From NCBI GenBank assembly GCA_902623495.1, contig CACNTW010000003.1, positions 36,240-100,239 on the forward strand: a stretch of 64,000 nucleotides of DNA, given 5' to 3'. A program made the translations under genes and the position numbers. Shown piece by piece: positions 29,381-57,552 of the stretch (its first letter is position 1; every line of letters begins with the position of its first letter). The notes under the pieces were generated by a model, which ran no database searches, was not told where the DNA came from, and saw only the letters and a list, made by a program, of their open reading frames with translations. This stretch comes from an uncultured Pelagibacteraceae bacterium. Lineage in GTDB: Bacteria > Pseudomonadota > Alphaproteobacteria > Pelagibacterales > Pelagibacteraceae.

Positions 29381-31531
29381 TTATTTGCCTATAGATATTA
29401 AGGTTAAGTCGTCACTTAGCTTGTTATCCCCAGCAGTATTAATTACTGAATTTGATATATCTGATAACTGTTTGCTAGAATCTGTATTAAAATTTTGTTC
29501 TATAATTTTTAATGAACCATCTATTCCTATTTCTTCACCTGAGCTATTTAAGCTTTCGGATAAACCATCAGTAAAAGCATAAAACCTATTATTTCCTAGC
29601 TTAACTTTGTGACTTTTATAAACAGATTTATCTTTTTGAAGTATTACTCCCATGGGTGGCGAATTACTCTCAAATTGCTCATAATTTCCTGATGATGATC
29701 TAATTATAGCTGGCTGATGACCTCCATTAACCCATCTTAATTCATCAGTCCTCATGTTATATTCTCCCAATATACTAGTAACAAACATGCCTCCAGTTTT
29801 AGTTAAAAATAGATCATTATTCATATGAAACATCATTTCATCTGGATCTACTTGATCTCTAGACATAATCTCAAATAAAGTTGATGCTTTTGCCATTACC
29901 ATTCCGGCATGAATTCCTTTACCTGCAACATCTGCAATAATAAAATAAACACTATCATTGTGAGGATAAAAGCTGAAGAAATCTCCAGAAACTTCTCTAG
30001 CTGCAATATTTATTCCATGTACAGGATAATTTTCTAAATTCCTCTTTGGTAGAAAATTTTCTTGAACTTTCACAGCAAGTTTTACTTCATTTGATATTCT
30101 GTCTCTCCATACTTTCTTTTCAGCTTCACTAGTTTCTAGTTTGCTCATCAATCTATTATAATAAAGTCCAATTACACCACCTGCAGTAAATGGATCTTGA
30201 GGTCCTCTAATTGTTAAATCTCCAGACTCAGATTGTTTTTCTAATATTGTAATTAAATCATGTTCTACAGAAGTTGCATTGTGTTCAGCAATATTCAGAC
30301 CTAGCTCTTCATGTAAAGGACTTACTCTTAAAGGATAGAAGTAATTTAAAATTTTCAATAAAATATATGATCCAAAAAAAGAGAATGCGCCAATAGACAC
30401 AATTCCAATAAACTGTGCTTTAATTTGCTCTAATCTAGTTAATCCAGTTCCAAGTATTTCAAGATCACTAAATAATCCAACTGCTATAGTGCCCCAAACA
30501 CCTGCTGCCAAATGAACTGGTACAGCTCCAACAACATCATCTATTTCAAATTTATTTAAAAATTCATTAACAAAAATTGCTACCACTGCACCAATAATAC
30601 CTACGAAAATTGATGTAACAGAAGTCATCGAATTACATCCTGCTGTAATTGCAACCAATCCTGCAAGTGGTCCAAGAATTACATAGTAAGGATCTGGTTT
30701 TTTAAATAATGCAAATGAAATTCCAAGACCTGTTAATAATCCAAAAGAAGCAGCTAGAAATGTATTTATTAAAATTAGTGGAACTGCCTCATCCATAGCT
30801 CCGTTACTTCCGCCATTAAATCCAAACCAACCAAACCACAAAATTAAGGTTCCCAGAACTGCAAGTGGAAAACTTGACCCTGTAAACTTTCCTTTATTAG
30901 CATCTGAATATTTTCCAATTCTTGGACCCAAAATTAATACTGCTGATAATGCAATCCATCCACCTACTGAATGAACAATGGTGCTTCCTGCGAAATCAAC
31001 AAATCCAATATCTGTCAGCCATCCTGTAGTTTTAACTTGTCCTGTAACAGCAAGTAATTGTCTCGTTGCATCAATGTTATTTAAATAACTAGATGACCAA
31101 GCCCAATGACCAACTATTGGATAAATTATTCCTGTAGCAATAATTGTTATGATTAAATAGCCATTAAACTTCATTCTTTCTGCAACAGCGCCCGATACAA
31201 TAGTTGCTGCAGTTGCAACAAACATTGCCTGAAACACAAAGTAAGTCATGTATTCAGCTCGATCAGTTTTAAAGAAAAATAAATCGGTTCCAAAATAACC
31301 ATTAAAGCTCTTACCAAACATCAAACCGAAGCCAAATAACCAAAAGATAACAACTGCTAATCCAAAATCAGCTGCGTTTTTTAATGCTACGTTAATACTA
31401 TTTTTATGCCTTGATAGTCCTGTTTCCATACACATGAAACCTGCCTGCATTATGAAAACTAAAATTGCGCAGTCTATAACCCAAAGGGTATCAACAAATG
31501 ATTTTACTGATTCCAGATCTACATTCTCCAT
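29381..31531 (-). CDS. Ammonium transporter (Amt) fused via a HAMP-like/coiled linker to a SpoIIE/PP2C phosphatase
   Basis: Amt motifs: MQAGF, FQAMF, SGAVAER, DFAGSTIVHSVGG, LWFGWFGFNGGS, DDVVGAVPVH. Linker GDLTIRGPQDPF...YYNRL. SpoIIE motifs: VSGDFF, ADVAGKG, FTDGLSE, DDLTL. Confidence 0.92.
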   Translation of the reverse strand: MENVDLESVKSFVDTLWVIDCAILVFIMQAGFMCMETGLSRHKNSINVALKNAADFGLAVVIFWLFGFGLMFGKSFNGYFGTDLFFFKTDRAEYMTYFVFQAMFVATAATIVSGAVAERMKFNGYLIITIIATGIIYPIVGHWAWSSSYLNNIDATRQLLAVTGQVKTTGWLTDIGFVDFAGSTIVHSVGGWIALSAVLILGPRIGKYSDANKGKFTGSSFPLAVLGTLILWFGWFGFNGGSNGAMDEAVPLILINTFLAASFGLLTGLGISFALFKKPDPYYVILGPLAGLVAITAGCNSMTSVTSIFVGIIGAVVAIFVNEFLNKFEIDDVVGAVPVHLAAGVWGTIAVGLFSDLEILGTGLTRLEQIKAQFIGIVSIGAFSFFGSYILLKILNYFYPLRVSPLHEELGLNIAEHNATSVEHDLITILEKQSESGDLTIRGPQDPFTAGGVIGLYYNRLMSKLETSEAEKKVWRDRISNEVKLAVKVQENFLPKRNLENYPVHGINIAAREVSGDFFSFYPHNDSVYFIIADVAGKGIHAGMVMAKASTLFEIMSRDQVDPDEMMFHMNNDLFLTKTGGMFVTSILGEYNMRTDELRWVNGGHQPAIIRSSSGNYEQFESNSPPMGVILQKDKSVYKSHKVKLGNNRFYAFTDGLSESLNSSGEEIGIDGSLKIIEQNFNTDSSKQLSDISNSVINTAGDNKLSDDLTLISIGK

Positions 31532-31598
31532 TTCATCCTCTTAAGGTTATATTTATTTTAAAGTTCATAATAGAAAGTAGATGGTCAAAATAGGTTAG

Positions 31599-31844
31599 TT
31601 AATCTTTTTTTTTCCAGATAAAATAAAACAAATAGGGACAAAGTGCTGGAACAACCCCAAACCAAAACCACTCATCCCATCTAAAGCTTTTATCCATCAT
31701 TGGGCTTCTTAAACCATTCCACCAAGTTAAATAACCAATCATTATTATCCACGCTAAACTGGCAGTTGCATAAATTTTAAAGTTTTTTGAAAGGTCTCCT
31801 GAGAAGACCAATTTAACTTGTTCAATATATTTATTGAAGTCCAT
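31599..31844 (-). CDS. Small hypothetical membrane protein (81 aa, two TM, Trp-rich)
   Basis: Two hydrophobic helices; co-oriented between pilE and the Amt fusion. Confidence 0.7.
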   Translation of the reverse strand: MDFNKYIEQVKLVFSGDLSKNFKIYATASLAWIIMIGYLTWWNGLRSPMMDKSFRWDEWFWFGVVPALCPYLFYFIWKKKD

Positions 31845-31853
31845 TTTAATAAT

Positions 31854-32312
31854 TTAACAGTTAGTGTTCTTATCGAGAACTGATTTATGAGTATAAGTCA
31901 TAATGCATGGTTTTGATGTTTCTTGTTCCTCAGTTTTAATTTTGTATCCATCTGAAAAAGCTTCAACACAAAATTCATAGCCTACCTTCTCAACTATAAC
32001 ATCTGCTTCACCTAATAATTCTTTCTCAATTTCATTTGATGGATCTGATTTTCCTGTGATATTACAAGTTTTGGTAAAGAAATAAGTATCGTTATCTGAA
32101 TAATACTCTGACTGAGCTAATGATATTTGCATCATTATATTTTCTGCAGATTTTTTTTTAGATGCTCCAACGTAACCATTGTAACTAACAATTCCTATAG
32201 CTGATATTATTCCTAGTATTGCTACTACCACCAAAAGCTCAATGAGTGAGAACCCAGAGCTTTTAGTAGTCATAAAAGAACTTTTCAAAATAAAAGTTTT
32301 ACTTTTATTCAA
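31854..32312 (-). CDS. pilE: Type IV minor pilin (PilE-like)
   Basis: Class III signal G|FSLIELLVVVAILGII with E5; KSAENIMMQISLAQSEYY helix typical of PilE; C-terminal Cys residues. Confidence 0.8.
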   Translation of the reverse strand: MNKSKTFILKSSFMTTKSSGFSLIELLVVVAILGIISAIGIVSYNGYVGASKKKSAENIMMQISLAQSEYYSDNDTYFFTKTCNITGKSDPSNEIEKELLGEADVIVEKVGYEFCVEAFSDGYKIKTEEQETSKPCIMTYTHKSVLDKNTNC

Positions 32313-32796
32313 TAAGAAGAGTATCGTTTAGTGGATCTTCTCCACTAGCAGTACATGTTGAAACAGTAACCTGACTAGCAGTACTTTTTACATTTGTTCT
32401 GCCTTGCGTATCTGTTGTACAATTAGCTTTTGCATCAAATTTTGCTGCATCAAAAATTGCTGATCCAGAACCACCAGTTGTTCCATATGAGTTTTTAAAT
32501 TCAGATAATGCTAAAGCTGCTGCTTTACTTACTTCTCCAGCAGATGTTCTGCTGCTACAAGTTAATTTATCAGCACCAGCTTTATCTTTCATTGCAGAAC
32601 TCTCTCCAATATTACATTTTTGTAATTCTGCAGCTATGTATTTAACAACTGTTGCATGGTTAGACTTTGCTCCAGACTTTTTCGCACTTGATGTATATCC
32701 AGAATAAGCAACTACTCCAACAGCAGCAAGAATACCGATAATGGCTACAACAACTAATAATTCTATAAGTGTAAAACCTTTATTATTTTTTTTCAT
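32305..32796 (-). CDS. pilA: Type IVa pilin, probable major pilin
   Basis: MKKNNKG|FTLIELLVVVAIIGILAAVGVVAY. RBS AGGA upstream of ATG 32796 (ORF-track start 32862 is too long). First gene behind a dedicated promoter region. Confidence 0.8.
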   Translation of the reverse strand: MKKNNKGFTLIELLVVVAIIGILAAVGVVAYSGYTSSAKKSGAKSNHATVVKYIAAELQKCNIGESSAMKDKAGADKLTCSSRTSAGEVSKAAALALSEFKNSYGTTGGSGSAIFDAAKFDAKANCTTDTQGRTNVKSTASQVTVSTCTASGEDPLNDTLLIE

Positions 32797-32884
32797 AATT
32801 TGTGTTCCTATTTTAAATAAAAAATATGTATATACATAATAATTATATCTCTTGAAAGTCAATATCTATATATGAAATCTATTC

Positions 32885-32919: not shown

Positions 32920-32938
32920 TTAATAAATATCAATATTT

Positions 32939-33238
32939 ATGTCATACAAAGTTACAGAAGAAGGCGGAATATCAATTGTTCACCTTGATGGTGAAATTGA
33001 TATGGACGTAACAGAAAAAGCAAAAGAAATTATAATGCCTTTAATAGAGGCAAAAAAAGAAGTTCATCTAAATTTAAAAGAAGTTCAGTATATGGACTCA
33101 TCAGGCATCTCAGTTTTGATTGAAAGTCATCAAAAAGCAACCGAACTTGGAACAAAAGTTATTTTAAAAGATATTAGCAAGTCAGTTTTGAAAGTTATTA
33201 TGATGGCAAAACTAGAACAAATTTTAAACTTAGGATAA
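32939..33238 (+). CDS. STAS-domain anti-sigma factor antagonist (RsbV/SpoIIAA-like)
   Basis: LDGEID and LNLKEVQYMDSSGISVLI with the conserved phospho-acceptor Ser in DSSG. Confidence 0.92.
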   Translation: MSYKVTEEGGISIVHLDGEIDMDVTEKAKEIIMPLIEAKKEVHLNLKEVQYMDSSGISVLIESHQKATELGTKVILKDISKSVLKVIMMAKLEQILNLG

Positions 33239-33241: not shown

Positions 33242-33670
33242 ATGAATAATCTTGCTCAAATATCAGAACAGAGAGATTTTGTCGTAAGTTCATCTAGCCT
33301 TAAAGATGTAAGAAGTTTTTCAAGAGAAGTTTTTGAAAAAGTAAATATTGAACAAGATTTAAAAGACGAATTAGTACTAGCGATAGCAGAAGCAGCCCAG
33401 AATATTGTTAAACATGCTTATCAAGGTGAGGATACTGAGGATAAAATGGAGATAAAAATTTCTTTAGCAAATGGTAATTTAGAAATTGGATTTTTTGATA
33501 AAGGAAGACCAGTTGAAAAAGATAAAATTCGACATAGAAAAATTGATGATATTAAACCAGGCGGACTTGGAACTTTTTTTATTCAACAAATAATGGATGC
33601 AGTAGTATTTAAAGAAGGTGAAAAGCCTTGGATCAACCATTTAATTTTGTCAAAAAAAATAAATTATTGA
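33242..33670 (+). CDS. RsbW/SpoIIAB-like anti-sigma factor Ser/Thr kinase (HATPase_c_2)
   Basis: N-box LAIAEAAQNIVKHAY, G1 DKG, G2 KPGGLGTFFIQQIMD. Confidence 0.9.
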   Translation: MNNLAQISEQRDFVVSSSSLKDVRSFSREVFEKVNIEQDLKDELVLAIAEAAQNIVKHAYQGEDTEDKMEIKISLANGNLEIGFFDKGRPVEKDKIRHRKIDDIKPGGLGTFFIQQIMDAVVFKEGEKPWINHLILSKKINY

Positions 33671-34905
33671 CCTATAATTGCACCAACATTAAAGATCGGT
33701 GAATACATCGCTATCATCAAACCACCAATCATAGTACCCATAAATACTATCATGATGGGTTCAATTAAACTCGACATATTATCTACAGCTGTATCAAACT
33801 CTTCTTCATAGTAAGCCGACACTGATGTAAACATTTCATCCAAGTTACCAGTTTGTTCACCAACTGATATAAGCTGACTAAAAGTCGGAGGGAACACTGG
33901 TTCTTTTAAAAATAATTTTGTTAGAGTATCACCAGAGAAAACACCTTTTTTTACATTTTCCAAAGCTTGAGTAACCACATCATTATTACTTACTTGTTTT
34001 GCAATTTCTATACTCTCAAGCAAGTTTACACCTGCAGAACTAAGATTACCCATAATCAGGGATATTCTTGCAATTAATGATTTTAAAATCATATCTCCAA
34101 ATACAGGCATTTTTAAAACTCTATTGTGCCATTTATATCTTACAGCTGGTATTTTTGTTGTTGTATATTTAAATAAAGCAAAACCAATTATACAAACTAT
34201 AGCTAAAGTCAAACCGCCTGCTCCTCTCATAAAATTACTTGCATTCATAATAACCGCTGTCGGAGTTGGTAAAGCTACTCCCATACCCTCATACATTTCG
34301 GCAAATATTGGAACAACTTTTATTAACATGAAAACCATAACTGTTATAGCAACAACAAACATCACTACGGGATAAGTTAATGCACTTTTGATTTTCTTTT
34401 TTACTTTCTCTCTTTTCTCAAGTGAGTCTACCAATTTAAGTAAAAAAACATCTAACTTACCACTCGCTTCTCCTGCCTTGATTAAGTTTATATAAATATT
34501 ATCAAAAATTTTAGGATACTTTTCAAAACATTTGGATAAAGTTACACCCCCCTCTAAACTTTTTCTTATGTCCTCAATGATTTCTTTCATTGTTGGGTGT
34601 TCAATTTGATCACGTAACATTGATAGAACATTCAAAATTGGCAGGCCTGCTTTAACCATTGTGGCAAACTGTTTTGAGAAAATCATCACATCTTGGGGTG
34701 ATACTTTTTTCTTTCCGAATGAAAAACTGCTTTTTTTACCTTTTTCTTTTGCTGCTTTTTTCTTTTTAGTTTTGACTAAATTTGTGATTATTATCTTTTG
34801 TTCTTTTAACTTATAAGACGCCTCTTCTTGATTAAGAGCTTCTATTTCTCCCTCTATATATTTTCCAGCGGAAATACCTTTGTATGTAAATGTTTCAGAG
34901 GACAT
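33664..34905 (-). CDS. pilC: Type IV pilus inner membrane platform protein
   Basis: Two T2SSF domains; FATMVKAGLPI, AGEASGKLD, ALTYP, VGEQTGNLD, LIEPIMI. Confidence 0.95.
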   Translation of the reverse strand: MSSETFTYKGISAGKYIEGEIEALNQEEASYKLKEQKIIITNLVKTKKKKAAKEKGKKSSFSFGKKKVSPQDVMIFSKQFATMVKAGLPILNVLSMLRDQIEHPTMKEIIEDIRKSLEGGVTLSKCFEKYPKIFDNIYINLIKAGEASGKLDVFLLKLVDSLEKREKVKKKIKSALTYPVVMFVVAITVMVFMLIKVVPIFAEMYEGMGVALPTPTAVIMNASNFMRGAGGLTLAIVCIIGFALFKYTTTKIPAVRYKWHNRVLKMPVFGDMILKSLIARISLIMGNLSSAGVNLLESIEIAKQVSNNDVVTQALENVKKGVFSGDTLTKLFLKEPVFPPTFSQLISVGEQTGNLDEMFTSVSAYYEEEFDTAVDNMSSLIEPIMIVFMGTMIGGLMIAMYSPIFNVGAIIGQ

Positions 34906-34908
34906 TTA

Positions 34909-36657
34909 TTAATCCATTGAAAGAACTCTATCAAACTCCCTGAAATTTAAATCTCCAGTTAATATAAGCTCTCTTCCCATATCTTGCATCGTTCTAAAGC
35001 CTTCATTAGAAGCAATTTCTTTTAGCTCTGGTGTCGTGGCTTTTCTTAAAATTGCTTCTTTAATAGGCTTAGTAACATTTAAAATTTCATAAATACCCAT
35101 TCGACCTTTGTATCCGCTATCTTTACATTTTGCACAACCCTTTCCTTTTTGAACTTTTGCTCTGGAAGCCTGTTCTACTGTAAAACCAAGATCAGCTAAA
35201 GCTTTTGGAGTAATGTCATTATCTGGTTCTCTACACTCTGTACAAGTTTTTCTTGCTAATCTTTGTGCCAAAACCAAACTTACAGCTGCACTAATTAAAT
35301 AATCCGGTGTTCCCATGTTCTGTAATCTTGTGATTGTGCTTGGCGCATCATTTGTGTGAAGTGTACTAAAAACTAAGTGTCCTGTTAGTGCTGCTTTTAA
35401 TCCAATATCAACTGTTTCTTTATCCCTCATCTCTCCAACTAGAATTATCTCGGGGTCCTGTCTTAAAAATGATCTTAAAGCTGTTGCAAAATTAAAACCA
35501 ATATCATCTTTAATTTGAACTTGTCCCACACCATCAAGTTCATACTCAACTGGATCTTCAGCAGTTAATATATTTAAATGGGGTTGAGAAACTTCCTTTA
35601 AAATACTGTATAGTGTTGTTGTCTTTCCTGAACCGGTCGGACCTGTTACAAGTACTAATCCTTGTGTACCATGAATTGCTTTCCTCAAATTTTTTAAATC
35701 TGTTTCTTCAAAATTTAATTGCTCTAAACTTATATCTCCTGCATCTTTATTTAGAACCCTCATTACAATTCTTTCATTTGTAGCTGTTGGCAAAATAGAA
35801 AGACGAAGATCAACAACTTTTCCATCAATTTTAAATGGTATGGCGCCATCTTGTGGAAGTCTTCTCTCTGCAATGTCTAATTTTCCCATAATTTTAAATC
35901 TTGTTACAACTGCACCATAATTAGAGTGCAAAAATTTTTTAAAATGCTCTTGCTCTGTAAGGATACCATCTAATCTATATCTTACTCTTGATGAGAACCT
36001 ATATGGTTCAATATGAATATCAGATACACCAGCTTTAATGGCGTCAGCAACTACAGCTGTACTAAATTTTATAACCTCAGACTCATTTTCAATTGCTTCT
36101 ATATCTTCTTCAGGTTGACTTTCTAAAACTTCTGCTTGTTCATCAACATCATAATCAAACGTTTTAGTTTTTTCAGCTTGGGTTTGTCTAATATCTGAAA
36201 TAGTTTTTTCACCATCTGCTAAAAGTTTATCTACAAAATTTGAGATATCTGAAACTTTTGCGGCATGTAATTCTATATCCATTTTTGTGATGGTTCTTAA
36301 GTTTCTCATCAAACTTAATTTTGAGATATCCGAAATTGCTATATGCAGAACTTTTCCTTCAATTTTAAAAGGTGCTATAAAATTCATATTTATATAATTG
36401 GAGGGAAGCACAGCTTTTAGCTCTTCGGTCGCTTCGATTGTTGATAAATCTACAACATCTAAAGACTGATCATGAACTAATAAATCTAATATTTTTTGTT
36501 CATCTGTTAAATTTAATTCAAACACAGCATCTAGTTGTGATTTATTTCCGTCACTAGAAATTTTTTTTATTTCAGCTAAGTCTTTTCCTGAAATAATATC
36601 TTGATCTATCAAGATATTAATTAAATTAATCTCAGACTCTCTACTTATATTAATCAT
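34909..36657 (-). CDS. pilB: Type IV pilus extension ATPase
   Basis: LDIAERRLPQDG, GPTGSGKTT, AEDPVE, LRQDPEIILVGEMRD, TLHTND, tetra-Cys Zn motif (CTEC...CAKC). Confidence 0.93.
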   Translation of the reverse strand: MINISRESEINLINILIDQDIISGKDLAEIKKISSDGNKSQLDAVFELNLTDEQKILDLLVHDQSLDVVDLSTIEATEELKAVLPSNYINMNFIAPFKIEGKVLHIAISDISKLSLMRNLRTITKMDIELHAAKVSDISNFVDKLLADGEKTISDIRQTQAEKTKTFDYDVDEQAEVLESQPEEDIEAIENESEVIKFSTAVVADAIKAGVSDIHIEPYRFSSRVRYRLDGILTEQEHFKKFLHSNYGAVVTRFKIMGKLDIAERRLPQDGAIPFKIDGKVVDLRLSILPTATNERIVMRVLNKDAGDISLEQLNFEETDLKNLRKAIHGTQGLVLVTGPTGSGKTTTLYSILKEVSQPHLNILTAEDPVEYELDGVGQVQIKDDIGFNFATALRSFLRQDPEIILVGEMRDKETVDIGLKAALTGHLVFSTLHTNDAPSTITRLQNMGTPDYLISAAVSLVLAQRLARKTCTECREPDNDITPKALADLGFTVEQASRAKVQKGKGCAKCKDSGYKGRMGIYEILNVTKPIKEAILRKATTPELKEIASNEGFRTMQDMGRELILTGDLNFREFDRVLSMD

Positions 36658-38222
36658 TATAAAATTCTTGGCGCTATAAATACCAATAATTCATCAAGGT
36701 TATCAGAGTTTGCCTTACCTTTAAAGAGATTACCAATCACAGGTACATTTCCAATACCAGGAGTTTGGTTTTTACTCTGAGAAAGCACGTTTTTCTTAAT
36801 ACCACCAATCACAACAATATCTCCATCTGCAACTAGTAATTTTGTTACAATTTCCATTTTATTGATAGGTGGCTCATCACCTCCGGCTGATCTGTTAGGA
36901 GTATCGTTATTTACTTTAATAGTTAATAGAACGTTTCCATCTCCAATAATGCTTGGAGTGACCTCTAATTTCAATGCAGCTTCTTTAAAAGAAGTAGAGG
37001 TTGTACCATCAGACGTAGTTTGATAAGGAATTTCCTCACCTTGCGTTACAGTTGCTAGCTGGTTATCCAAAGTAAATACTTTTGGATTTGATATTGTTTT
37101 ACCCATTCCCATACTCTCTAATGCTGTTATTTCAGCTTTAAGAACTCCTGTGGGTGTTCGTCTCAAAATTCCGATACCACTTGTAGCGCCAGTAACTGGA
37201 AAATTAGCTATGCTATCTGTTGCTGATCCAAGCCCTGCGGCAGTATCTAAATCAGTTCCAAATGCACTTCCACTACTAGTTCCTGCTGTACCCCCTGATA
37301 TTTTTCCACCTCTATTATAATAGCCGCCTATCCTAGTACCGAGCGCTCTTTCAAAATCTGAGTTAGCTTCGACAATGAATGCTTCAATTAAAACTTGTTT
37401 GGTTCTTATATCTATCTCTTTCACAACTTTATCAACCACATCTAAGTCTTTTTCTTTACCTCTTACTATTATTGACCTTGTAGTTATTTCTTCTGTTATT
37501 TGAATTGGTGTAAAGGAACTATCTCCACCTGCTGATTGTGTAAATAATTCCTCAATTGTCTGTTTAGCTTGAGACGGTGTTATATAATAAAGTCTAAATA
37601 TTTCAGAATATATTGGTTCAACGCTATCTTCCAATTCTACTTTTCTCTTAACTGCCTGAGCTCTTTCAGATTTATAAGTTTCTTGAGCAGTTAAAGTTTC
37701 TGGTGAGTGTATTCTTATTAAATTACTTGCTACATCAACATCTGAAGCAAAATTTTTCATATCTAGTAATGCCTGAAAAGCTTTATCCCAAGGAACATCT
37801 ATTAATTCTGCTGATATTGCACCAGCTACCTCGTCACCAACAAGAATATTTATTTCTCCAATTTTACCCATTAATTCCATTGTTTCTTTGTAATCTAAGT
37901 TTTTAAATTTTAACGTAACTCTTTGTTTCAATAATGGATAATCATCTGGAATGATTAAATAATTTCTTTGCGATTCAGATGATATTTTTTTTCTTTTGCC
38001 TAATTTTCTAGAGTCACCTTCAATAGGTTTTGGTCCCATCTCTAAAGTTTTTGCAACTTCTGACTTTCCAGATGCAACTATGTTTTTATCCTTTATTAAC
38101 GGGGTATTATGCTTAAAGGGTTTGTTGTATTTTTTTCCAAATTGTGAATTTGGACCACAGGCGCTAATAATAAGTACAATAGTAAATAGTAAAACTATGT
38201 TAAAAAACTTTTTAATAATCAT
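36657..38222 (-). CDS. pilQ: Type IV pilus secretin (short, probably lipoprotein)
   Basis: VPWDKAF (N0), QVLIEAFIVEA, ISNPKVFTLDNQLATVTQGEEIPY, LKLEVTP, PGIGNVPVIGNLFK, LVFIAPRIL. Likely start MIIKK at 38222 with lipobox ISA-C. Confidence 0.93.
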   Translation of the reverse strand: MIIKKFFNIVLLFTIVLIISACGPNSQFGKKYNKPFKHNTPLIKDKNIVASGKSEVAKTLEMGPKPIEGDSRKLGKRKKISSESQRNYLIIPDDYPLLKQRVTLKFKNLDYKETMELMGKIGEINILVGDEVAGAISAELIDVPWDKAFQALLDMKNFASDVDVASNLIRIHSPETLTAQETYKSERAQAVKRKVELEDSVEPIYSEIFRLYYITPSQAKQTIEELFTQSAGGDSSFTPIQITEEITTRSIIVRGKEKDLDVVDKVVKEIDIRTKQVLIEAFIVEANSDFERALGTRIGGYYNRGGKISGGTAGTSSGSAFGTDLDTAAGLGSATDSIANFPVTGATSGIGILRRTPTGVLKAEITALESMGMGKTISNPKVFTLDNQLATVTQGEEIPYQTTSDGTTSTSFKEAALKLEVTPSIIGDGNVLLTIKVNNDTPNRSAGGDEPPINKMEIVTKLLVADGDIVVIGGIKKNVLSQSKNQTPGIGNVPVIGNLFKGKANSDNLDELLVFIAPRIL

Positions 38223-38661
38223 CTGCCTCTCTGACTTGATTATTAAAATCAATAATCATAAATTTTCCATCTTCTTTTTTAAAAATTGCTTCAGTCAATC
38301 TTAGATCCACAAGTTGAATTTTTCCTAAAAATTGACCAAGAGTTAAAGTCAAAACTTCACCTCCAGAATTTACTATTGAAATATAACTGTGATCCTTTCC
38401 AGATATAAGACCAGCTAATTTAAAATTATATAAACTAAGTTCGTTCTCTTGTTCATCAGCAGGTATATTTCCGGACATTGAACTTGTACCTTCATTTCCT
38501 GCAAAAGGATCATTTAAAGGAACTTCCTCTTCATTTTCTAATTCTTTAGCTATTTCATTAACTTTATCTAAAACTTCTTGCTTTTGATCGTGACTGTCAG
38601 CTAGTGCTAACGAATTAATTAATGTAAATAATAAAATAAATATTATTTTAAAAAAATTCAT
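38212..38661 (-). CDS. pilP: PilP-like pilus assembly protein
   Basis: Position between pilO and pilQ; NDPF and LxxYxFKLAGLI...GQFLG pattern of the PilP domain; no lipobox Cys. Confidence 0.65.
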   Translation of the reverse strand: MNFFKIIFILLFTLINSLALADSHDQKQEVLDKVNEIAKELENEEEVPLNDPFAGNEGTSSMSGNIPADEQENELSLYNFKLAGLISGKDHSYISIVNSGGEVLTLTLGQFLGKIQLVDLRLTEAIFKKEDGKFMIIDFNNQVREADDY

Positions 38662-44853: not shown

Positions 44854-44911
44854 ATATGGCAAATTTGTTTATTAATAAAAAATATTTTAATGTAGTAAGT
44901 AAAATTATTTT

Positions 44912-49620: not shown

Positions 49621-49633
49621 TAAATATACATTT

Positions 49634-51652
49634 ATGAAAAAGATTTTAATAATTATATTCTTTTTCTTTTCATTCGGCTCTTTAGGTCATGCTACTTGTC
49701 TTAAAACAATAACTGCTGCGCTAACTGAAGTGCAAACTTGTGGGGAAAGTGAAACCTTAACTGTTGAGTCAACTGGTTCAATAGTATTTAGTGGATCTAA
49801 AGCAGTAAGAGCAAATAATGGTGTTGGTGCATCAAATACAACCTTAATCAACCATGGTTTGATAAGTGCAACGGGTGATACCATAAATATGAAAAGCGCC
49901 CCTGGAACAAATAAAATTACTAATTCAGGTACAATAAATACAGCTCAAAATGAAAATGCTAGCAGTAGCATTGCTGTTTTAGTTCAGAAAACAGATGACA
50001 CTGAGATTGTTAATAGTGGAACTATTCATGGTGGAAAATATGCTATACAAGGTCAAGAAACTAGCGATATAACCATTACAAACAGTGGTACTATTTCTGC
50101 AAATAATGGAAGTGCTGCTGCCATTTACCTTACCAATGGTACAAATGCAACAATAACAAACACTGGAACAATTACAAATTTAAGACATGGAATTAGACTT
50201 GGTAAAGGTCATGGCTCATTAAATAATGCTACAATTATTAATTCTGGTTTAATTGCTGGCACAACTCATAACGATAGAAATTCAATATATGTTAGCGATG
50301 ATAACAATGTAACTTCGGGATTTAATTTAATAACAAAAGGAGAAGGACATTATGATGGTAAAATTCTACTTAGCGATCAAAACGGAACAACCGGTGTAAC
50401 ATTTTTCGACTTTACTTTAGATTGTAGTATTTCAAGAGATCAGACCATAGAAATTCATGAAAAACAAAATGTGAGGATAATTAATAATTTATGCGGGAAT
50501 GATACTTATGAAATTCTAGACTCAAATTTAAATCCAGATGCAGATAATTCTGAAACAAATGGATATTTAAGAATTTATGGTGAAGATTTAGATATTGATA
50601 GCCATAATAAAAAATATAGATCGGAAATATTTTTATCTAATTTAAATGATATTTTTAATTCAGTTTCAGAAGAAAAAAAATCTAGTGGATATTATTCTGT
50701 TAAAAAAAGAGACAATATTTATAAAAATGAAACACGTGGTGTAACTGGAGACTTTAAAATCGAAAATGATAACTTTACACCCTTCCTAAGTTATTCAAGC
50801 CAACAAGCAAATTTTAATAATGGAGAGTCTTTAGATAGTGAAAATTTGGCTATTGGTTTAAAAAAAGAAATTGATTATGAGAAATTTAAATTTTCTGTGG
50901 TTTCAATTTTTGGATTAACTCAAAATAAATATTTAGATCTTGAAACTGAAACAAAGCAAACAATTTTAAAAGAAAACCTCGGTCAATTTGCTGCTGTAAA
51001 TTATAAAGCGTCTAAAAAAATAGAAATTGATGACAGTCAAAGTTTAAATATTGAAGTCGACGGAAAATATGGTCTTAGAAGACTTCCAACTTATTTAACA
51101 TCTTTTACAGATGGAGATCTTTCAGTTGATGATGCTGTGGATCAAGTATTATCAGGTGGATTTAATGTTGAGTATTCAAAGTTCTTTGAAAATGGTTTTG
51201 TGCTTAAACCATATACAGGTTTATCTTTAAATCAAACTTTGAGTAAAAAAATTGACATTGTTGCAGATGGTGAAAGAAAAGACATGGCTCATTATATGGA
51301 TGATGATTTGGCAGTAAAAGCTGGTTTAAATATCAGCAAAAATACTGATAATTTTGGCCTAAACTTTAATCTTGAATTTAATGAACAAAATGGACTTAAA
51401 GACAGCCAAGTAAATATTTCTTTAACTAAAGTAATTCAAAATAATATTAGTAAAAAAATAGAAGGTTTACCTATTGATCCAGAGCTAGAAAAATTGTTTG
51501 ATCAATTACAATTAGCTAGAGAAAATGAGAGATTGGCTGAGATAACCGGTAGAGCAGTTGAGGAGAATAGAATAATGAAAGAAATGATTATTCAACTTAT
51601 CAAAGAAAACAATAAGCTCAAAACAGAGAGAAATCTTTTACTAAAAAATTGA
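49634..51652 (+). CDS. Exported autotransporter-like protein: beta-helical repeats, barrel-like region, C-terminal coiled coil
   Basis: Signal peptide; repeated I(T/V/I)N(S/T/H)G(T/L)I units; amphipathic strands in the C-terminal half; final ~70 aa heptad-rich. Confidence 0.6.
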   Translation: MKKILIIIFFFFSFGSLGHATCLKTITAALTEVQTCGESETLTVESTGSIVFSGSKAVRANNGVGASNTTLINHGLISATGDTINMKSAPGTNKITNSGTINTAQNENASSSIAVLVQKTDDTEIVNSGTIHGGKYAIQGQETSDITITNSGTISANNGSAAAIYLTNGTNATITNTGTITNLRHGIRLGKGHGSLNNATIINSGLIAGTTHNDRNSIYVSDDNNVTSGFNLITKGEGHYDGKILLSDQNGTTGVTFFDFTLDCSISRDQTIEIHEKQNVRIINNLCGNDTYEILDSNLNPDADNSETNGYLRIYGEDLDIDSHNKKYRSEIFLSNLNDIFNSVSEEKKSSGYYSVKKRDNIYKNETRGVTGDFKIENDNFTPFLSYSSQQANFNNGESLDSENLAIGLKKEIDYEKFKFSVVSIFGLTQNKYLDLETETKQTILKENLGQFAAVNYKASKKIEIDDSQSLNIEVDGKYGLRRLPTYLTSFTDGDLSVDDAVDQVLSGGFNVEYSKFFENGFVLKPYTGLSLNQTLSKKIDIVADGERKDMAHYMDDDLAVKAGLNISKNTDNFGLNFNLEFNEQNGLKDSQVNISLTKVIQNNISKKIEGLPIDPELEKLFDQLQLARENERLAEITGRAVEENRIMKEMIIQLIKENNKLKTERNLLLKN

Positions 51653-53542
51653 TTTTAAAGATTTAATTATATTAAAATTTGTATTTGAATATTTGTTGAT
51701 CTCAAATGCTTTAAAAAATTTGTGATATTTATTTTTTTGTATCACTGGTAGCTTTAAATAGATCTGTTGAATAGTATCAGATTTTAATATTTTAAATTTT
51801 TTTCTTTTTCCTAATAAAATTAAATACAAATAAAATTTCATAATATTTTTGCTGTTTAAATTGAAAAAAAATTTAATTAATAAAAATAAAAACAAAGGTA
51901 TAAATATCCAAATGTATATTTTAGAAAAGTTAAGATTTAACAATTCTTTGATAAAATTTTTCCGTTCATTATCATCATATGATAATAAATGCTTCGTCCA
52001 TACAAAATCAGCATAATTAAAGTAATAACTCATTTTTTTAAAAAAATTAGATGAAAACAAACTATTTGATGAGAATTGTTCATTTGAAAAAACGTTATTA
52101 AGTGTATTTCTGACATTACTGTCAGGAATTGCTTTGGTCGGATCTATTCTTACCCAACCTTTATCATTTAGCCATACTTCTGCCCATGCATGTGTATCTT
52201 TTTGTTTGAATTTGTAGAAATCTCCTATATCATTTAATTCACCTCCATAATAGCCTGTTACAATTCTACTTGGTATATTTGCAAGTCTTGCAAGAAGAAC
52301 AAAAGTTCCAGCATAATATTCGCAATACCCCTCTTTAAGATCAAAGAAAAAGTTTTCATAATTATTTCCAGAAAAATTTTGAGGACTTAAATTATAATAG
52401 TAAGATCCATCAGAAAATTTTTTAAATAACTTATTTAAAAACTCTGTCGGTGTCGACGTATTGTTTTTTAAAACCCATTTTTGAAGTCTATTTGATATAT
52501 TAGATGGAGTTTTTGTATAATAGTCTTTTAAATCCTCTCCTAAAAAGAAATTAGTTTTATATCTTTTAAAACTTATTTGTTTTTTTCGATCAATTAAATC
52601 TCTGCTAACGTAAATTTGATTAAAATAATCTTCTGATATCTCAATATTATTAGAGATTAATTTTGAATTTTTTAAACTTGGTATCCATTTCTTTTTAAAA
52701 GGTTCTAAAATTATCTGATAGGTTTGATTTAGTTCCCTACCGTCCTTAACTTTAAAAGATGACTTATATTTATCAAATAAATAATAACTTGAAGACGGTC
52801 TCCAGGATTTGTCTTCTTCCATGTAATCAAAAATTTTAACCCTAAAATAGAGCTCATCCTTTTTAAAATTGTTATTTATAAGGGTAAAAACATCTTCTTC
52901 TGAATTTGAAAACTCACTGAAAGATCCAAGATTAATGCTATCTGGAATACCTAAAGAGCTTGATACTGGATTAAATAATCTAAAATTTATTTCTGCACGT
53001 GGGAAAACTAAATAAAAAATAATTATAAAAGGAAAAATACTTAATCCAAAACCTAAATATTTAAATACATTTTTAATATTAAAATCTAGCAACTCCTTTT
53101 GCTGAATTAGATACATATTTATTATGACCAGTATTACGATAGTAAAACTTAATAAAGTGCTTAATATATCTTGGCCTTTAATAAGGCTTGCAACCGATAT
53201 TATTAAACAAATCAAGCTGAATGAAAGTTTGTTATCTTTATTTTTTAATTCTGAAAACTTCATGATCAATAGTATTGCTAAACAGTTTAGGAAAAATTCC
53301 TCTGAAAACACATATTCATTAAAAATAAGCTGAATATAAATCGCGCCTATTGCAATAATACCTAAGATTAAACTTTTTAATTTTATATTAATTTGAAAAA
53401 ATAGAAGATTGAAAATAAATACAACAAACCAAAAAAATTTATTATTTAATGTTAAATCCGCTGATAGTGAAAAAGTGCACAAAATTAAAAGCAGAAAAGT
53501 AAATACTGATAAATTGTAATTCTTAATTTTTAACATCGGCAA
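51641..53542 (-). CDS. Membrane transglutaminase-like protein (DUF3488 + transglutaminase core, TgpA-like)
   Basis: N-terminal TM bundle; LYFRVKIFD; catalytic GYCEYYA (Cys), HAWAEV (His), RIDPT (Asp). Confidence 0.88.
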   Translation of the reverse strand: MPMLKIKNYNLSVFTFLLLILCTFSLSADLTLNNKFFWFVVFIFNLLFFQINIKLKSLILGIIAIGAIYIQLIFNEYVFSEEFFLNCLAILLIMKFSELKNKDNKLSFSLICLIISVASLIKGQDILSTLLSFTIVILVIINMYLIQQKELLDFNIKNVFKYLGFGLSIFPFIIIFYLVFPRAEINFRLFNPVSSSLGIPDSINLGSFSEFSNSEEDVFTLINNNFKKDELYFRVKIFDYMEEDKSWRPSSSYYLFDKYKSSFKVKDGRELNQTYQIILEPFKKKWIPSLKNSKLISNNIEISEDYFNQIYVSRDLIDRKKQISFKRYKTNFFLGEDLKDYYTKTPSNISNRLQKWVLKNNTSTPTEFLNKLFKKFSDGSYYYNLSPQNFSGNNYENFFFDLKEGYCEYYAGTFVLLARLANIPSRIVTGYYGGELNDIGDFYKFKQKDTHAWAEVWLNDKGWVRIDPTKAIPDSNVRNTLNNVFSNEQFSSNSLFSSNFFKKMSYYFNYADFVWTKHLLSYDDNERKNFIKELLNLNFSKIYIWIFIPLFLFLLIKFFFNLNSKNIMKFYLYLILLGKRKKFKILKSDTIQQIYLKLPVIQKNKYHKFFKAFEINKYSNTNFNIIKSLKSIF

Positions 53543-54437
53543 AATATTTTAATATTCGATTTAAAGATTGATTATTGTTGTTTAGGTATAACTCGTGTTT
53601 TTTATGTTTTATTTTCAAGTTCAATTTTTTTTCATAACAATAATTAACTATATAAGATGAGTAATTTAGTAATTTTTCAAATTCAATATGTGGATATTTA
53701 TCTAAATCTAAAATTAGATTAGACAATTTTTCAGTATCACTAAAAGTTTTTACATATTTTTTGTCACTAATTATTGATTTTTTCCATGCAATTTTGGAAA
53801 AACTATCTCCATTTTTAAATTCATCAATACCATCAAATTCATCAGCATTAATGATATTAATTATTTTAAATTCTTTTAATAATTCGTCGCTCGGAAGAAC
53901 TTTTTTTGGATAAATAATTATTTCACTCTTTGGATTAAAAATAACTTTAGTTCTCATCAATCCAAAGGGATAAATCGATTTAAGTGTTATTGGATTAAAA
54001 TAAGATTTACCTCTATAATTACTTTTATAATCTATTTTAAAAAAATTAATTCTGTCAGTAAAATTATAATTACCAACGTTTTTTTTATTGTATTCTATAT
54101 CAATATTAATTTTTTTTTCTTTTGATGAATTTAAGATTTGAAAACTGATTGAATTTATAGTTTCTGCTTCAACTAAATACTCGTCTTTACATATAAAATC
54201 TAGTTTGCTTATATTTTGATGAGAAATAAATATTGATATAAAAAAAACAAAGAAAATTACTATTGAAATTAATAGCCCTGAATTATTTTCATAAAACACT
54301 GAAATTAAAAAGCAGAAAAAGATAAATAAACCTAAGCCTAAACCATTAAAGTTAGGATAAATATAAATCTTAGCTTCTTTTTTTAAATTAAGGAAACTTT
54401 TAAAATTAAAACTAATAGTTTTTGATTGGACTTCCAT
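53523..54437 (-). CDS. DUF58 domain protein
   Basis: IYIYPNFNG, N-terminal TMs, SIYPFGL, IIIYPK, EFDGIDEFKNGD...IAWKKS. Confidence 0.8.
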   Translation of the reverse strand: MEVQSKTISFNFKSFLNLKKEAKIYIYPNFNGLGLGLFIFFCFLISVFYENNSGLLISIVIFFVFFISIFISHQNISKLDFICKDEYLVEAETINSISFQILNSSKEKKINIDIEYNKKNVGNYNFTDRINFFKIDYKSNYRGKSYFNPITLKSIYPFGLMRTKVIFNPKSEIIIYPKKVLPSDELLKEFKIINIINADEFDGIDEFKNGDSFSKIAWKKSIISDKKYVKTFSDTEKLSNLILDLDKYPHIEFEKLLNYSSYIVNYCYEKKLNLKIKHKKHELYLNNNNQSLNRILKYFADVKN

Positions 54438-55315
54438 TAGCCAATGTTTATTTTTTCGAGGATTTCTTTATTAACATAACCAACTTTATCATCTTGGTTT
54501 AAAAACTTTATTCTATGCCTTAAAATATAAGGTATTGTGTCTTTTATATCTTGGTGAGAAACATATTCTTTTCCATGAACAATTGCCCAACCTTTGGCTA
54601 AGTCAATTATTTGCTTCATGCATCTTGAAGAAATATAGATATTTTGTTCTAAAGCTTTAATCGTTTGCTCTATTTCAACAACATATTCAAAAATTTCATC
54701 TTTTACAATTATTTCTTTTTTTTTATCATTAATTTGAGACCAATTAATTGTTTCACTTGCAGAATTTGAAAAAGAGATATTTTTTTTTAACATTAAAATT
54801 TTTTCTTTTTGATCTAAGTCCGACAGTGAATAAGAAATCATAAAACGATCCAATTGTGAATCTGGTAGAGAACTAGTTCCAGAAGTATCCATAGGATTTT
54901 GAGTTGCAATGACAAAAAATGGTTCTGGTAAATTATAGCTATCTCCATCTATTGTAACATTTTTTTCTTCCATTGCTTCTAGGAATGCGCTTTGAGCTTT
55001 TGGACTTCCCCTATTTAGTTCATCTGCCAAAACAATATTTGTAAAAATAGGACCTTTCTGAAATTTTAACTTATCATCTGATAAAATGTTAAATCCTAGA
55101 ACATCACTTGGTAATAAATCAGATGTAAATTGGATTCTTTTAAAGTTAAGTCCTAAGCTTGATGTTATTGCTTTAGCAAATGTAGTCTTTCCTGAACCAG
55201 GATAGTCTTCAATTAAAATACTTCCTTCAGAAATGATTGCAGCTAGAGTTAATTTGATTTTATCTACATTGCCAACTATAGTTTTAGAAGTATTTGATAT
55301 TATATTTTCAAACAT
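54437..55315 (-). CDS. moxR: MoxR family AAA+ ATPase
   Basis: LIEDYPGSGKTT, RIQFTSDLLPSD, LADELNR, FVIATQNP, LPDSQLDRF. Confidence 0.92.
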   Translation of the reverse strand: MFENIISNTSKTIVGNVDKIKLTLAAIISEGSILIEDYPGSGKTTFAKAITSSLGLNFKRIQFTSDLLPSDVLGFNILSDDKLKFQKGPIFTNIVLADELNRGSPKAQSAFLEAMEEKNVTIDGDSYNLPEPFFVIATQNPMDTSGTSSLPDSQLDRFMISYSLSDLDQKEKILMLKKNISFSNSASETINWSQINDKKKEIIVKDEIFEYVVEIEQTIKALEQNIYISSRCMKQIIDLAKGWAIVHGKEYVSHQDIKDTIPYILRHRIKFLNQDDKVGYVNKEILEKINIG

Positions 55316-55329: not shown

Positions 55330-56094
55330 TTAATAAAAAATTATAGATTGAATATTACTTTCAAAAATTAAATATATCAATGTACCAATAATGATGTAGG
55401 GGCCAAATGGGATCTGAGATGAAAGTTTTTTTGATTTTTTCATTAGACTAGGGATCACAAATAATAAAGCTATTATAGACGATAAAAATATCACAAAAGG
55501 TATTGAGATCCATCCAAACCAGAATCCGATTGCTGATAAAAGTTTAGCATCACCTAAACCCATTCCCTCTTTGTTTCTTAATTGTTTGTAAAAAAAAATT
55601 ATAGACCAAATAATTAAATAACCAAAAATTCCTCCAATTAAAGAATTTATATAGTTTGGGAAAATTGGATTTAAATTTGGGTCAAAAGATTTTATAAAAC
55701 CAATTACCATTAAAGAAAAAGTTAATACATTTGGAATGATGTAATGTTTTAGGTCAATAAAGAAAATTATAATAAAAGATAGACCTAAAATTAAAAAAAG
55801 TAAGGTAGTTAAGCTTATACCAAATAAGTAATAAACAGATAAAAAATAAATAATAGTAATAAACTCGATTAATAAATACTGAGGTGAAATTTTTTTTCTA
55901 CATCTTCTGCATTTGCCGTTTAAAAATAGAAATGAAATTATCGGAATATTATCTTTCCAAGTAATTAATTTTTTACACTTTGGACAAAATGATCTTCCTG
56001 ATACAACCCCTTTACCCATAGGGAGTCTATAAATACAAACATTTGCAAAACTACCCCAAAGTCCCCCGAGAATAATTACAAATATTAAATCCAC
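55330..56094 (-). CDS. pilD: Prepilin peptidase / N-methyltransferase
   Basis: GSFANVCIYRLP, CPKC...CRRC Zn motif, IDLKHY and GMGLGDAKL catalytic Asp motifs. GTG start. Confidence 0.95.
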   Translation of the reverse strand: MDLIFVIILGGLWGSFANVCIYRLPMGKGVVSGRSFCPKCKKLITWKDNIPIISFLFLNGKCRRCRKKISPQYLLIEFITIIYFLSVYYLFGISLTTLLFLILGLSFIIIFFIDLKHYIIPNVLTFSLMVIGFIKSFDPNLNPIFPNYINSLIGGIFGYLIIWSIIFFYKQLRNKEGMGLGDAKLLSAIGFWFGWISIPFVIFLSSIIALLFVIPSLMKKSKKLSSQIPFGPYIIIGTLIYLIFESNIQSIIFY

Positions 56095-56262
56095 AGAAAC
56101 TGATTATAATTTAATGTTTGATGTAATATGAATTAACCCATCAATTACATACTGAACCATTAATACGGCATCCTGAAGGTGGATGTATAAATTAGGTGTA
56201 TTAATTATAATCTCCATTGTTGAAAAATTTACCAAAAATTGCTTAAAATACTAGTTAAATAA

Positions 56263-57552
56263 ATGTTTCTATTTAAATCAAAAAAACCGATCGAACCTAA
56301 AAAAGAAGCTGAACAAGTTAACGTCGACTTAGAGCTTGTCACAAAAATGAATCAAGAATTTGCTTTGTCTCTCGATTTAAACGACACTCTAATGAATGCA
56401 TTGCGGGTAATTATTGCAAGGCTAAATGCAGAAGCTGCAAACATTTTTTTAATAAATGAACAAAAGAAAAAGTTTGAATGTATTGCTTCACTTCATCAAG
56501 ATTATTTAGATGAATACGAATTAGATCTAAAAGATGGTGTTATGGGTAAAGCTGTTCAGCAAAGAAAATGTATTCGTGTAGGAAATGTAAGAAAGGATGT
56601 TAGAGAGATAGCAGAATTTTATTTTGATTTAGATAATAAAACAAATTTTACAACATACTCAGTTTTATGCTCACCTTTGATTGCAGCAAATGAATGTATT
56701 GGAGTTATTCATTGTTTAAATAAGAAAACTCAAGACAAATTATTTATAGAAGATGACAGAAAACTTTTAGAAACACTTTCAGCGCCAGCTGCTTTAGCAA
56801 TTAGAAATGCAAAGATGGCAAAAGAAATGGTCGAAAAAAATAAAATTCAAAAAGAAGTAGAAATTGTTGGAGAAATTCAAAGATCCTTATTATCTAAAAA
56901 TAAAGAGAAAGACTTTCCTATATCTGGAATAAATATCCCTGCCAAAGTTGTTTCAGGTGACTTTTATAATTTTTCCGATTTAGGAGATGGTAAATATGGA
57001 TTTGGTGTTGCTGATGTATCTGGAAAAGGTATTAAATCTTCACTACTAATGTCGAAAGCATCTAGTCTTTATAGATGTTTAAGTAAAACTAATTTTTCTG
57101 CATCTGATTTATTATTTCAATTAAATAATGAGATATGTGAAACTATTTCAAGAGGGATGTTTGTTACTATGTTAATTGGAATATACGATTCAAATAAAAA
57201 AGAACTATTGTTATCTAGTGCAGGTCATGAGCCACCTTTGATTTTGTCTGCTGATGGAACTTTTAGTAATTTCTCAGAAGCTGGCCCTCCACTAGGCATT
57301 ATGCCTAAAACAAAATATCCTGAGCACACTATACCTTTCGAAAATAGCTCAATGTATATTTTTACAGATGGGATTACAGAGATAAAAAATCCAAATGGGG
57401 AAATGTTAGGATCAGAAGGTTTTGAAAATTATATCAAAAAATATCAATCAACTTCGATCAACGATAGACTTAAAACTATGATAGATGATATTTTAGGAGC
57501 AGGTCATGTACAAAAAGATGATTTAACAATTGTTGCTATAGATGGAAAATAG
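56263..57552 (+). CDS. GAF domain-SpoIIE/PP2C phosphatase (RsbU/RsbP-like)
   Basis: GAF with TNFTTYSVLCSPL...VIHCLNK...F...DD; SpoIIE motifs VSGDFY, ADVSGKG, FTDGITE, DDLTIV. Confidence 0.92.
   Translation: MFLFKSKKPIEPKKEAEQVNVDLELVTKMNQEFALSLDLNDTLMNALRVIIARLNAEAANIFLINEQKKKFECIASLHQDYLDEYELDLKDGVMGKAVQQRKCIRVGNVRKDVREIAEFYFDLDNKTNFTTYSVLCSPLIAANECIGVIHCLNKKTQDKLFIEDDRKLLETLSAPAALAIRNAKMAKEMVEKNKIQKEVEIVGEIQRSLLSKNKEKDFPISGINIPAKVVSGDFYNFSDLGDGKYGFGVADVSGKGIKSSLLMSKASSLYRCLSKTNFSASDLLFQLNNEICETISRGMFVTMLIGIYDSNKKELLLSSAGHEPPLILSADGTFSNFSEAGPPLGIMPKTKYPEHTIPFENSSMYIFTDGITEIKNPNGEMLGSEGFENYIKKYQSTSINDRLKTMIDDILGAGHVQKDDLTIVAIDGK

Follow-up and report, generated by a model that had tools for sequence, protein, structure and literature searches.

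The partner switches RsbU/V/W-sigmaB and SpoIIE/AA/AB-sigmaF of Bacillus are among the closest described systems to a set of four signalling genes, encoding two PP2C-type sensor phosphatases (Amt-SpoIIE and GAF-SpoIIE), one STAS protein and one RsbW-like kinase, that is found within the type IVa pilus locus of a Pelagibacteraceae (SAR11) genome, on a 64-kb stretch of DNA that is referred to, as a whole, as the window. The likeness extends to the three protein families, to the phospho-serine motif of the STAS protein and to sensor PP2Cs with helical linkers, and the best Protein Data Bank (PDB) matches of the SAR11 STAS protein (RsbV, SpoIIAA) and kinase (RsbW) belong to these switches. Unlike them, the SAR11 genes have no cognate alternative sigma factor and are scattered through the pilus locus instead of forming a sigma operon. 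Precedents for a non-sigma effector, or for the STAS protein as the output, are provided by Vibrio SypA/E, RbaV/W/Y and HmpU/V/W. RbaV/W/Y of Rhodobacter capsulatus is alphaproteobacterial and lacks an adjacent sigma factor, its STAS protein seems to be dominant, and it uses a receiver-PP2C, as some SAR11 loci do; unlike the SAR11 genes, it has effects on the production of gene transfer agents and on viability in stationary phase, and it has no link to a pilus (PMC3999984). HmpU/V/W of Nostoc punctiforme, a PP2C/STAS/kinase switch, is required for type IV pilus-driven motility, and its STAS protein is regarded as the output, with an undefined non-sigma effector as its target (Riley et al. 2018, as relayed in PMC6495340 and PMC9127174). 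As far as these accounts go, it differs from the SAR11 genes in its cyanobacterial, sigma-rich host, in its location outside the pil cluster and in having no ammonium receptor input, and the two are likened by function and not by homology.

The Amt-SpoIIE protein has been described on its own. SAR11 Amt-GI5 (Microbiome 2025, PMC11796062) is the same protein, with 716 amino acids (aa) that comprise an Amt domain and, at the C-terminus, a phosphoprotein phosphatase. Its authors took it for a probable ammonium sensor, found in SAR11 only, named SAR11_0049/0050 of HTCC1062 as further examples, found no cognate transducer and assigned the protein no role (PMC11796062). Beyond that study, the comparative genomics presented here names a likely substrate STAS protein, a kinase and a link to the pilus. 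The closest solved relatives of the Amt half are Sd-Amt1 (Amt-HAMP-GGDEF) and Ks-Amt5 (Amt-histidine kinase) (PMC11152129); unlike in these receptors, the output domain in SAR11 is a PP2C that would feed a partner switch, and not a diguanylate cyclase or a histidine kinase. A STAS/RsbW pair has been drawn in SAR11 pilus loci in a figure of a 2026 preprint (10.64898/2026.10.07.757358). A SAR11 pilus island was reported to be enriched in nitrogen-poor Pacific water, and DNA uptake for nitrogen was suggested (2025, PMC12789548). Our literature search found no paper that brings the Amt-PP2C, the STAS/kinase pair and the pilus of SAR11 together; the parts have been published separately, and the assembled circuit, to judge by this search, has not. 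An earlier note on this DNA knew of no described system of this composition, which holds for the circuit as a whole but not for its parts and parallels, since the Amt-phosphatase, the STAS/RsbW pair and Nostoc HmpU/V/W were already known.

We read the SAR11 locus as a sigma-less partner switch, with a single STAS protein and two sensor phosphatases, that is functionally tied to the type IV pilus. The probability of this whole chain is put at roughly 0.55; the module itself is more certain than the chain, and its target is less certain. A Pfam scan of every open reading frame (ORF) between 26 and 61 kb of the window finds Amt-SpoIIE at 29381..31531 on the minus strand (Ammonium_transp 6.6e-111, SpoIIE 9.7e-34), downstream of and co-oriented with two pilin genes and an 81-aa ORF. 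The anti-sigma-antagonist-type STAS protein of 99 aa (32939..33238, plus strand; STAS 2.9e-17) and the RsbW/SpoIIAB-like GHKL serine kinase of 142 aa (33242..33670, plus strand; HATPase_c_2 8.4e-20) form a pair divergent from pilA, and the 3' ends of the kinase gene and of the convergent pilC overlap by 7 bp. The cytoplasmic GAF-PP2C/SpoIIE phosphatase (56263..57552, plus strand; SpoIIE 6e-42, GAF_2 1.4e-10) is divergent from pilD. A complete type IVa pilus set, with PilB, PilC, PilQ, PilM/N/O, PilT, PilD and the major and minor pilins, occupies the same locus, and the four signalling genes are interleaved with the pil genes at the positions and in the orientations given in the earlier note.

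Both phosphatases cover the SpoIIE model at near full length (positions 3-189 and 2-190 of 192), and the PP2C motifs SGDF, DV(A/S)GKG, TDG and DD can be read in both. Amt-SpoIIE consists of an Amt module (residues 17-420), a HAMP-like or helical linker (~416-520) and the PP2C domain (526-714). Judged from its sequence, the Amt half resembles receptors more than transporters. Its top PDB matches are the ammonium receptors Sd-Amt1 (8qj3, 1.4e-117) and Ks-Amt5 (6eu6, 3.7e-84), whereas transporters score far lower (Af-Amt1 1e-43, AmtB ~1e-28). The N1/N2 ligands of Sd-Amt1, E29, N45, D48, T104 and S107, correspond to E36, N52, D55, T110 and S113 of Amt-SpoIIE, and the twin pore histidines are kept. 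Pfam gives no HAMP match in the linker; the alignment with Sd-Amt1 extends to query residue 481, ~65 residues beyond the Amt fold, in the HAMP region of Sd-Amt1. A sample of 400 other Pseudomonadota genomes left the PP2C half unmatched, the nearest relatives of the Amt module there being, without exception, multidomain proteins of 650-1300 aa, and this agrees with the published SAR11-specificity of the fusion (PMC11796062). All the homologues that a protein search retrieved for Amt-SpoIIE were near-identical and from SAR11 (at least 90% identity), so that this search informs on SAR11 alone.

In Sd-Amt1 and Ks-Amt5, the binding of ammonium turns the output domain on (PMC11152129), and PP2C sensor phosphatases are activated by helical linkers from exchangeable sensor domains (PMC12143880). 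By analogy, ammonium would activate the phosphatase of Amt-SpoIIE and so hold the STAS protein unphosphorylated. Control of the pilus under nitrogen limitation, as put forward in the earlier note, was a guess: the receptor analogy predicts ammonium as the ON signal of the output domain, which downstream could switch pili on or off.

The STAS protein passes the NCBIfam model TIGR00377 of the anti-sigma-antagonist superfamily (72.6 bits against a cut-off of 53.45). Its predicted phospho-acceptor, Ser54, lies within YMDSSG and aligns with the phospho-serine of SpoIIAA and RsbV (DSSG/DSTG). The kinase aligns with RsbW (6m36_A) and keeps the N-box (E..N..H; E50, N54) and the GGLG lid. The NCBIfam equivalog cut-offs are missed for RsbW (52.8 against 145), SpoIIAB (27.9 against 135), SpoIIAA (50.3 against 114.75) and MlaB (24.5 against 90). 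DSSG is invariant across 75 STAS orthologues, and the ratio of nonsynonymous to synonymous substitution rates (dN/dS), given as medians over 72-75 orthologues, amounts to 0.035 for the STAS protein and 0.084 for the kinase, which indicates strong purifying selection. Decaying or non-functional STAS and kinase genes are ruled out by these values and by the invariant motifs; judged by their pattern of substitution, both are working genes.

A longer STAS variant of 170-177 aa is present in other SAR11 lineages, G015 (L004-L007, 20393-21661 of the joined locus) and G001 (L001, 6632-7930), the G and L numbers being our handles for genomes and loci. It carries an acidic, Pro/Glu-rich tail that ends in DDDGDKIKFKR. 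The gene for the long variant lies immediately next to pilD and is co-oriented with it; the kinase gene is found 30-50 kb away, beside pilT.

The four genes are the only recognisable Ser/Thr phospho-signalling set of the source genome (assembly of 1.26 Mb in 31 contigs, 93% complete), whose closest relatives in public data all come from Pelagibacteraceae, as single-cell or metagenome genomes. A tblastn search of the whole genome with the four proteins found no second STAS protein, no second RsbW-like kinase and no further PP2C, and it gave two ordinary Amt paralogues; no Hanks-type kinase above threshold was found in the genome. Because there are one STAS protein, one kinase, two PP2Cs and no Hanks kinase, it is simplest to assume that both phosphatases act on this one Ser54, in keeping with the convergence on one STAS serine that the earlier note had proposed. 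The same note had found no sigma factor gene in the 64 kb. None is present in the window, and only two Sigma70_r2 matches occur genome-wide, an RpoD-like protein of 623 aa and an RpoH-like protein of 299 aa, both on other contigs; sigma-54 was not found in the genome. A dedicated sigma factor is unavailable as an output in this genome.

Synteny and co-occurrence bear out the tie to the pilus that had been suggested from the window. In a survey of 121 genomes of the order with the SpoIIE, STAS, HATPase_c_2 and Secretin models, SpoIIE, small STAS (under 185 aa) and RsbW-like (strong hits, E<1e-15) proteins share one and the same set of 34 genomes, each of which has a secretin. In the window's family, 61 genomes are essentially complete; of these, 34 have both switch and pilus, none has the switch only, two have the pilus only and 25 have neither (Fisher p = 4e-15, with no correction for phylogeny). 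The switch always comes with a pilus, but the pilus does not always come with the switch. The kinase gene lies 3.4-18.3 kb from pilQ (median 6.3 kb) in 34/34, and this linkage is kept through at least four gene orders at 35-40% protein identity. The arrangement of the window recurs in G069; in a second layout (G117, G013) an RsbW-STAS pair is divergent from a coiled-coil membrane protein and pilD; in a third (G015, G001) the long STAS gene is co-oriented with the adjacent pilD and the kinase gene converges on pilT. A STAS gene next to a co-oriented pilD occurs in two of the gene orders. Among the 80 nearest species-level genomes (loci L021-L100), the genes follow one invariant order wherever the contig allows it to be read: Amt-SpoIIE in one or two copies, then orf81, pilE, pilA / STAS, RsbW / pilC, pilB, pilQ. 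GTDB species representatives gave 403 homologues of the kinase. The STAS and kinase genes stand between core pil genes (pilA/pilC, pilD, pilT) in every layout examined, and never at the edge of the island. The gene arrangement is not a chance juxtaposition.

The sensor phosphatase is the variable part of the switch. Four sensor classes are found on one core: Amt-PP2C (11 of the 34 switch genomes), GAF-PP2C (12 of 34, with both classes in 8 of 34), CHASE2-PP2C, which is the commonest class (659-698 aa), and a HisKA-like/receiver-PP2C of 538-541 aa in a sister genus. Alternative sensors can be seen in L005 (G015), L011 (G013), L020 (G115) and L019 together with L001-L002 (G001). In all four classes, a helix and a segment of the form (I/V)Q..L(L/F/I)P stand just ahead of the PP2C fold. 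The conserved SAR11 unit is the pilus, the STAS protein, the kinase and any one of the four sensor phosphatases. The Amt-PP2C fusion never occurs without the STAS protein and the kinase (both present in 11/11 genomes).

A second Amt-PP2C paralogue, with 54-56% identity to the first and adjoining it, is present in 5 of the 11 Amt-PP2C genomes. Such a tandem paralogue (743-751 aa) was observed in 23 of the 80 close loci and in G069 (L009, 32027-34258 of the joined locus), and is absent from the window; the pair hints at two ammonium sensors with different properties.

The module has relatives outside SAR11. When aligned SAR11 kinases served as the query for a search of the class, strong kinase relatives came up in many other alphaproteobacterial families. 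All 16 loci inspected encode a STAS protein and a full-length GAF-SpoIIE homologue in one orientation (34-42% identity, in most alignments over nearly the full length; E down to 1e-121), and the RsbW-like kinase is either separate or fused to the phosphatase (558-627 aa). The operon order GAF-PP2C, RsbW, one or two STAS genes and an MlaE-like permease is found in 8/8 loci with 10-kb flanks and in the short loci where these are long enough. The one locus read further (L116, 8538-14051) continues with an MlaF-like ATP-binding cassette (ABC) ATPase, an MCE/MlaD-like protein and a lipoprotein. No pil genes are present within 10 kb of the Mla-linked operons, and no sigma factor gene is adjacent to them. 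GAF-PP2C appears, from these comparisons, to be the ancestral phosphatase of the module. The homologous GAF-PP2C, RsbW and STAS genes make up a tight operon there and are broken up in SAR11, whose module looks like the Mla/MCE-linked switch minus the transporter, dispersed among the pil genes and with new sensor phosphatases gained. No MlaE homologue was found in the window's genome by tblastn or with a custom hidden Markov model, and a switch still serving an Mla-type transporter here was ruled out on this ground.

In the Mla system, the STAS protein MlaB directly binds the MlaF ATPase. The Mla-linked operon (L105-L120) itself suggests a phosphorylation-regulated MlaB analogue that controls an ABC system of the lipid-transport type. 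To our knowledge, an alphaproteobacterial GAF-PP2C/RsbW/STAS/MlaE-MlaF-MCE operon has not been described. The Mla-linked ancestry points to a wider class of partner switches, so far little studied, whose targets are membrane machines and not sigma factors.

From the gene content and its conservation, we infer as follows which protein acts on which, what the switch targets and in which direction it responds. The RsbW-like kinase would phosphorylate Ser54 of the sole STAS protein, and the two PP2C sensors, a membrane Amt receptor acting via its helical linker and a cytoplasmic GAF protein, would strip the phosphate. The phosphorylation state of the STAS protein would integrate external ammonium and an intracellular ligand; by analogy with the solved receptors, the protein would be unphosphorylated with ammonium present and phosphorylated when ammonium is scarce. 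The output would be the pilus, via direct contact of the STAS protein or the freed kinase with PilB, PilT, PilM-N, PilC or PilD, and, with RpoD and RpoH as the sole sigma factors of the genome, direct protein contact is the most likely route. The Mla-linked history and the lack of a spare sigma factor together favour a direct protein-level output on a membrane machine. The switch probably ties pilus production or activity to the nitrogen supply. In a more specific version, which is put forward tentatively, the ammonium-receptor phosphatase sets the state of the STAS protein and the STAS protein binds a pilus motor or assembly protein directly, as MlaB binds MlaF, to form a post-translational gate on extension. 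If this is true, the nitrogen supply would gate pilus extension and hence DNA or nucleotide scavenging or attachment, and in other strains the CHASE2, receiver and GAF phosphatases would serve as exchangeable inputs to this switch.

Several observations weigh against the proposed ammonium-to-pilus chain or limit it. Most SAR11 pilus loci use CHASE2 or receiver phosphatases, and ammonium is an optional, lineage-specific input to a conserved pilus-linked switch and not its defining feature. Of the ammonium input claimed in the earlier note, the receptor-like character of the Amt half stands; its place as the defining input does not, the Amt and GAF sensors being found together in 8/34 switch genomes. 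In G009 and G047 the Amt-PP2C gene, and in G043 one copy of it, is separated from the pilus locus by hundreds of kb. Pili without the switch are present in two genomes of the family and 10 of the sister family, and the switch is therefore not needed for assembly. The co-occurrence of switch and pilus may in part be physical linkage within one flexible island. Messenger RNA and protein of SAR11_0049/0050 of HTCC1062 were unchanged under nitrogen limitation (PMC3870248), a result that is neutral for a sensor and fits a constitutive one. An AlphaFold2 model of the STAS-TAA-RsbW read-through, made from a shallow alignment (12 orthologues, at least 83% identity), reached a mean predicted local distance difference test score (pLDDT) of 62.6 and a predicted template modelling score (pTM) of 0.53, values too low for an interface to be read from it. 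Absences at the level of the genome carry the small caveat that the assembly is 93% complete.

The direct pilus output has to be weighed against an action on global transcription, in which the RsbW-like protein would sequester RpoD or RpoH and the pilus locus would be merely the site of the genes. Such an output would suit a kinase of the RsbW/SpoIIAB family in a cell where RpoD and RpoH are the only sigma factors available, and the main sigma factor has been reported to be sequestered in Chlamydia, which a review lists among the organisms that have such systems. A global regulator is, however, not expected only in pilus-bearing strains and always within the pilus cluster; moreover, two-hybrid tests showed no binding of a sigma factor by RbaW, which comes from another alphaproteobacterium, and in their operons the module's relatives are joined to a transporter and not to sigma genes. 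We consider this output unlikely. The switch could instead hitch-hike with the pilus and control another function of the island, be it the MoxR/304-aa ORF/TgpA block or an envelope or transport process. TgpA and MoxR, found only in switch-bearing genomes and beside the locus, the MlaE/MlaF/MCE transporter to which the homologous module is tied elsewhere and the flexible nature of SAR11 pilus islands all speak for this. It is nevertheless improbable in view of the absence of TgpA from 11 of the 34 switch genomes, all of which have the pilus, of the lack of an MlaE homologue in this genome and of the position of the STAS and kinase genes between core pil genes in every layout examined.

The same switch could also be separate from Amt-SpoIIE, if the latter is mainly an ammonium transporter whose phosphatase regulates transport or nitrogen metabolism as a substitute for P-II, apart from the STAS protein and the pilus. 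SAR11 is without P-II (PMC3870248), the pore residues are intact and some Amt-PP2C genes stand away from the pilus locus. Against this, 11/11 genomes with the fusion also have the STAS protein and the kinase, PP2Cs of the SpoIIE family are as a rule devoted to STAS substrates, the closest relatives that have been characterised are binders and not transporters of ammonium, and two ordinary Amt paralogues are available for uptake. A transporter role of this kind is very unlikely, and a sigma-less switch tied to the pilus is preferred over all three alternatives.

SAR11 is the most abundant heterotroph of the surface ocean and has very few regulators, with no canonical P-II or NtrBC. Its regulation is poorly understood, and the locus offers a wiring that would run from an ammonium receptor to a PP2C, from there to a STAS/kinase pair and on to the pilus. 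A likely partner is thereby supplied for the Amt-phosphatase fusion, an orphan sensor in the published record, and one conserved switch core is seen to accept four sensor modules across strains.

The genes between Amt-SpoIIE and the STAS gene are all on the minus strand. An 81-aa ORF with two predicted membrane helices (31599..31844) has no Pfam family. It is followed by a PilE-like pilin (31854..32312; N_methyl 1.5e-07 and a weak, sub-threshold ComP_DUS match) and the major pilin PilA (32305..32862; N_methyl 1.7e-10, at residues 24-48 of the long ORF), for which the ATG at 32796 is probably the true start; with this start, the pilA-STAS intergenic gap is ~142 bp. The 81-aa ORF is present in 70 of the 80 related loci, and its homologue adjoins pilD in switch-less pilus loci (G011, G061), which assigns it to the pilus set and not to the switch. 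A promoter scan of 29200-34000 gave fewer promoter-like sites than in shuffled sequence, and a terminator scan of the same interval gave none between the pilins and Amt-SpoIIE. The pilA-STAS intergenic alignment contains a few conserved blocks and no recognisable operator.

Beyond the kinase gene, the minus strand encodes the PilC platform (33664-34905), the PilB extension ATPase with an MshEN domain and the PilQ secretin, which together span 33664..38252 (T2SSF 6.9e-62, T2SSE 1.1e-123, Secretin 2e-41). PilB matches TIGR02538 (1.4e-167) with 558.7 bits, under the strict equivalog cut-off of 675.65. A 149-aa ORF at the PilP position, a PilO-like protein and a PilM-PilN fusion occupy 38212..41001 on the same strand (PilO 1.7e-4, PilM_2 4.8e-19, PilN 2.6e-09). 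The fusion is a single protein of 571 aa (39286-41001), with PilM_2 at 55-259 and PilN at 488-566; it is kept in related loci, and measures ~700 aa in a pilus lineage without the switch. On the plus strand, the PilT retraction ATPase (41128..42144; TIGR01420 3.4e-124, over the cut-off) precedes a region (42122..51652; N_methyl, PilX_N and weak VWA_2 matches) of four minor pilins, a 177-aa ORF, a VWA/PilY1-like protein of 1391 aa and a 672-aa ORF. No Pfam or NCBIfam family was found for the 177-aa and 672-aa ORFs. We also note that the 1391-aa protein, which together with the 672-aa ORF spans window 45445-51652, has only a weak VWA match.

A TgpA-like transglutaminase, a 304-aa ORF and a MoxR AAA+ ATPase (51641..55315, minus strand; Pfam) make up an accessory block within the island, with a nested distribution. 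Of the 34 genomes with the switch, 23 have TgpA, in each case next to the pilus locus, and the family's other genomes have none; the block could be one more accessory of the pilus island or else a target of the switch. The PilD prepilin peptidase (55330..56094, minus strand; A24_N_bact 2.7e-31, Peptidase_A24 4.1e-21) follows, ahead of GAF-SpoIIE. RodA and PBP2 come after GAF-SpoIIE, and the island therefore ends there.

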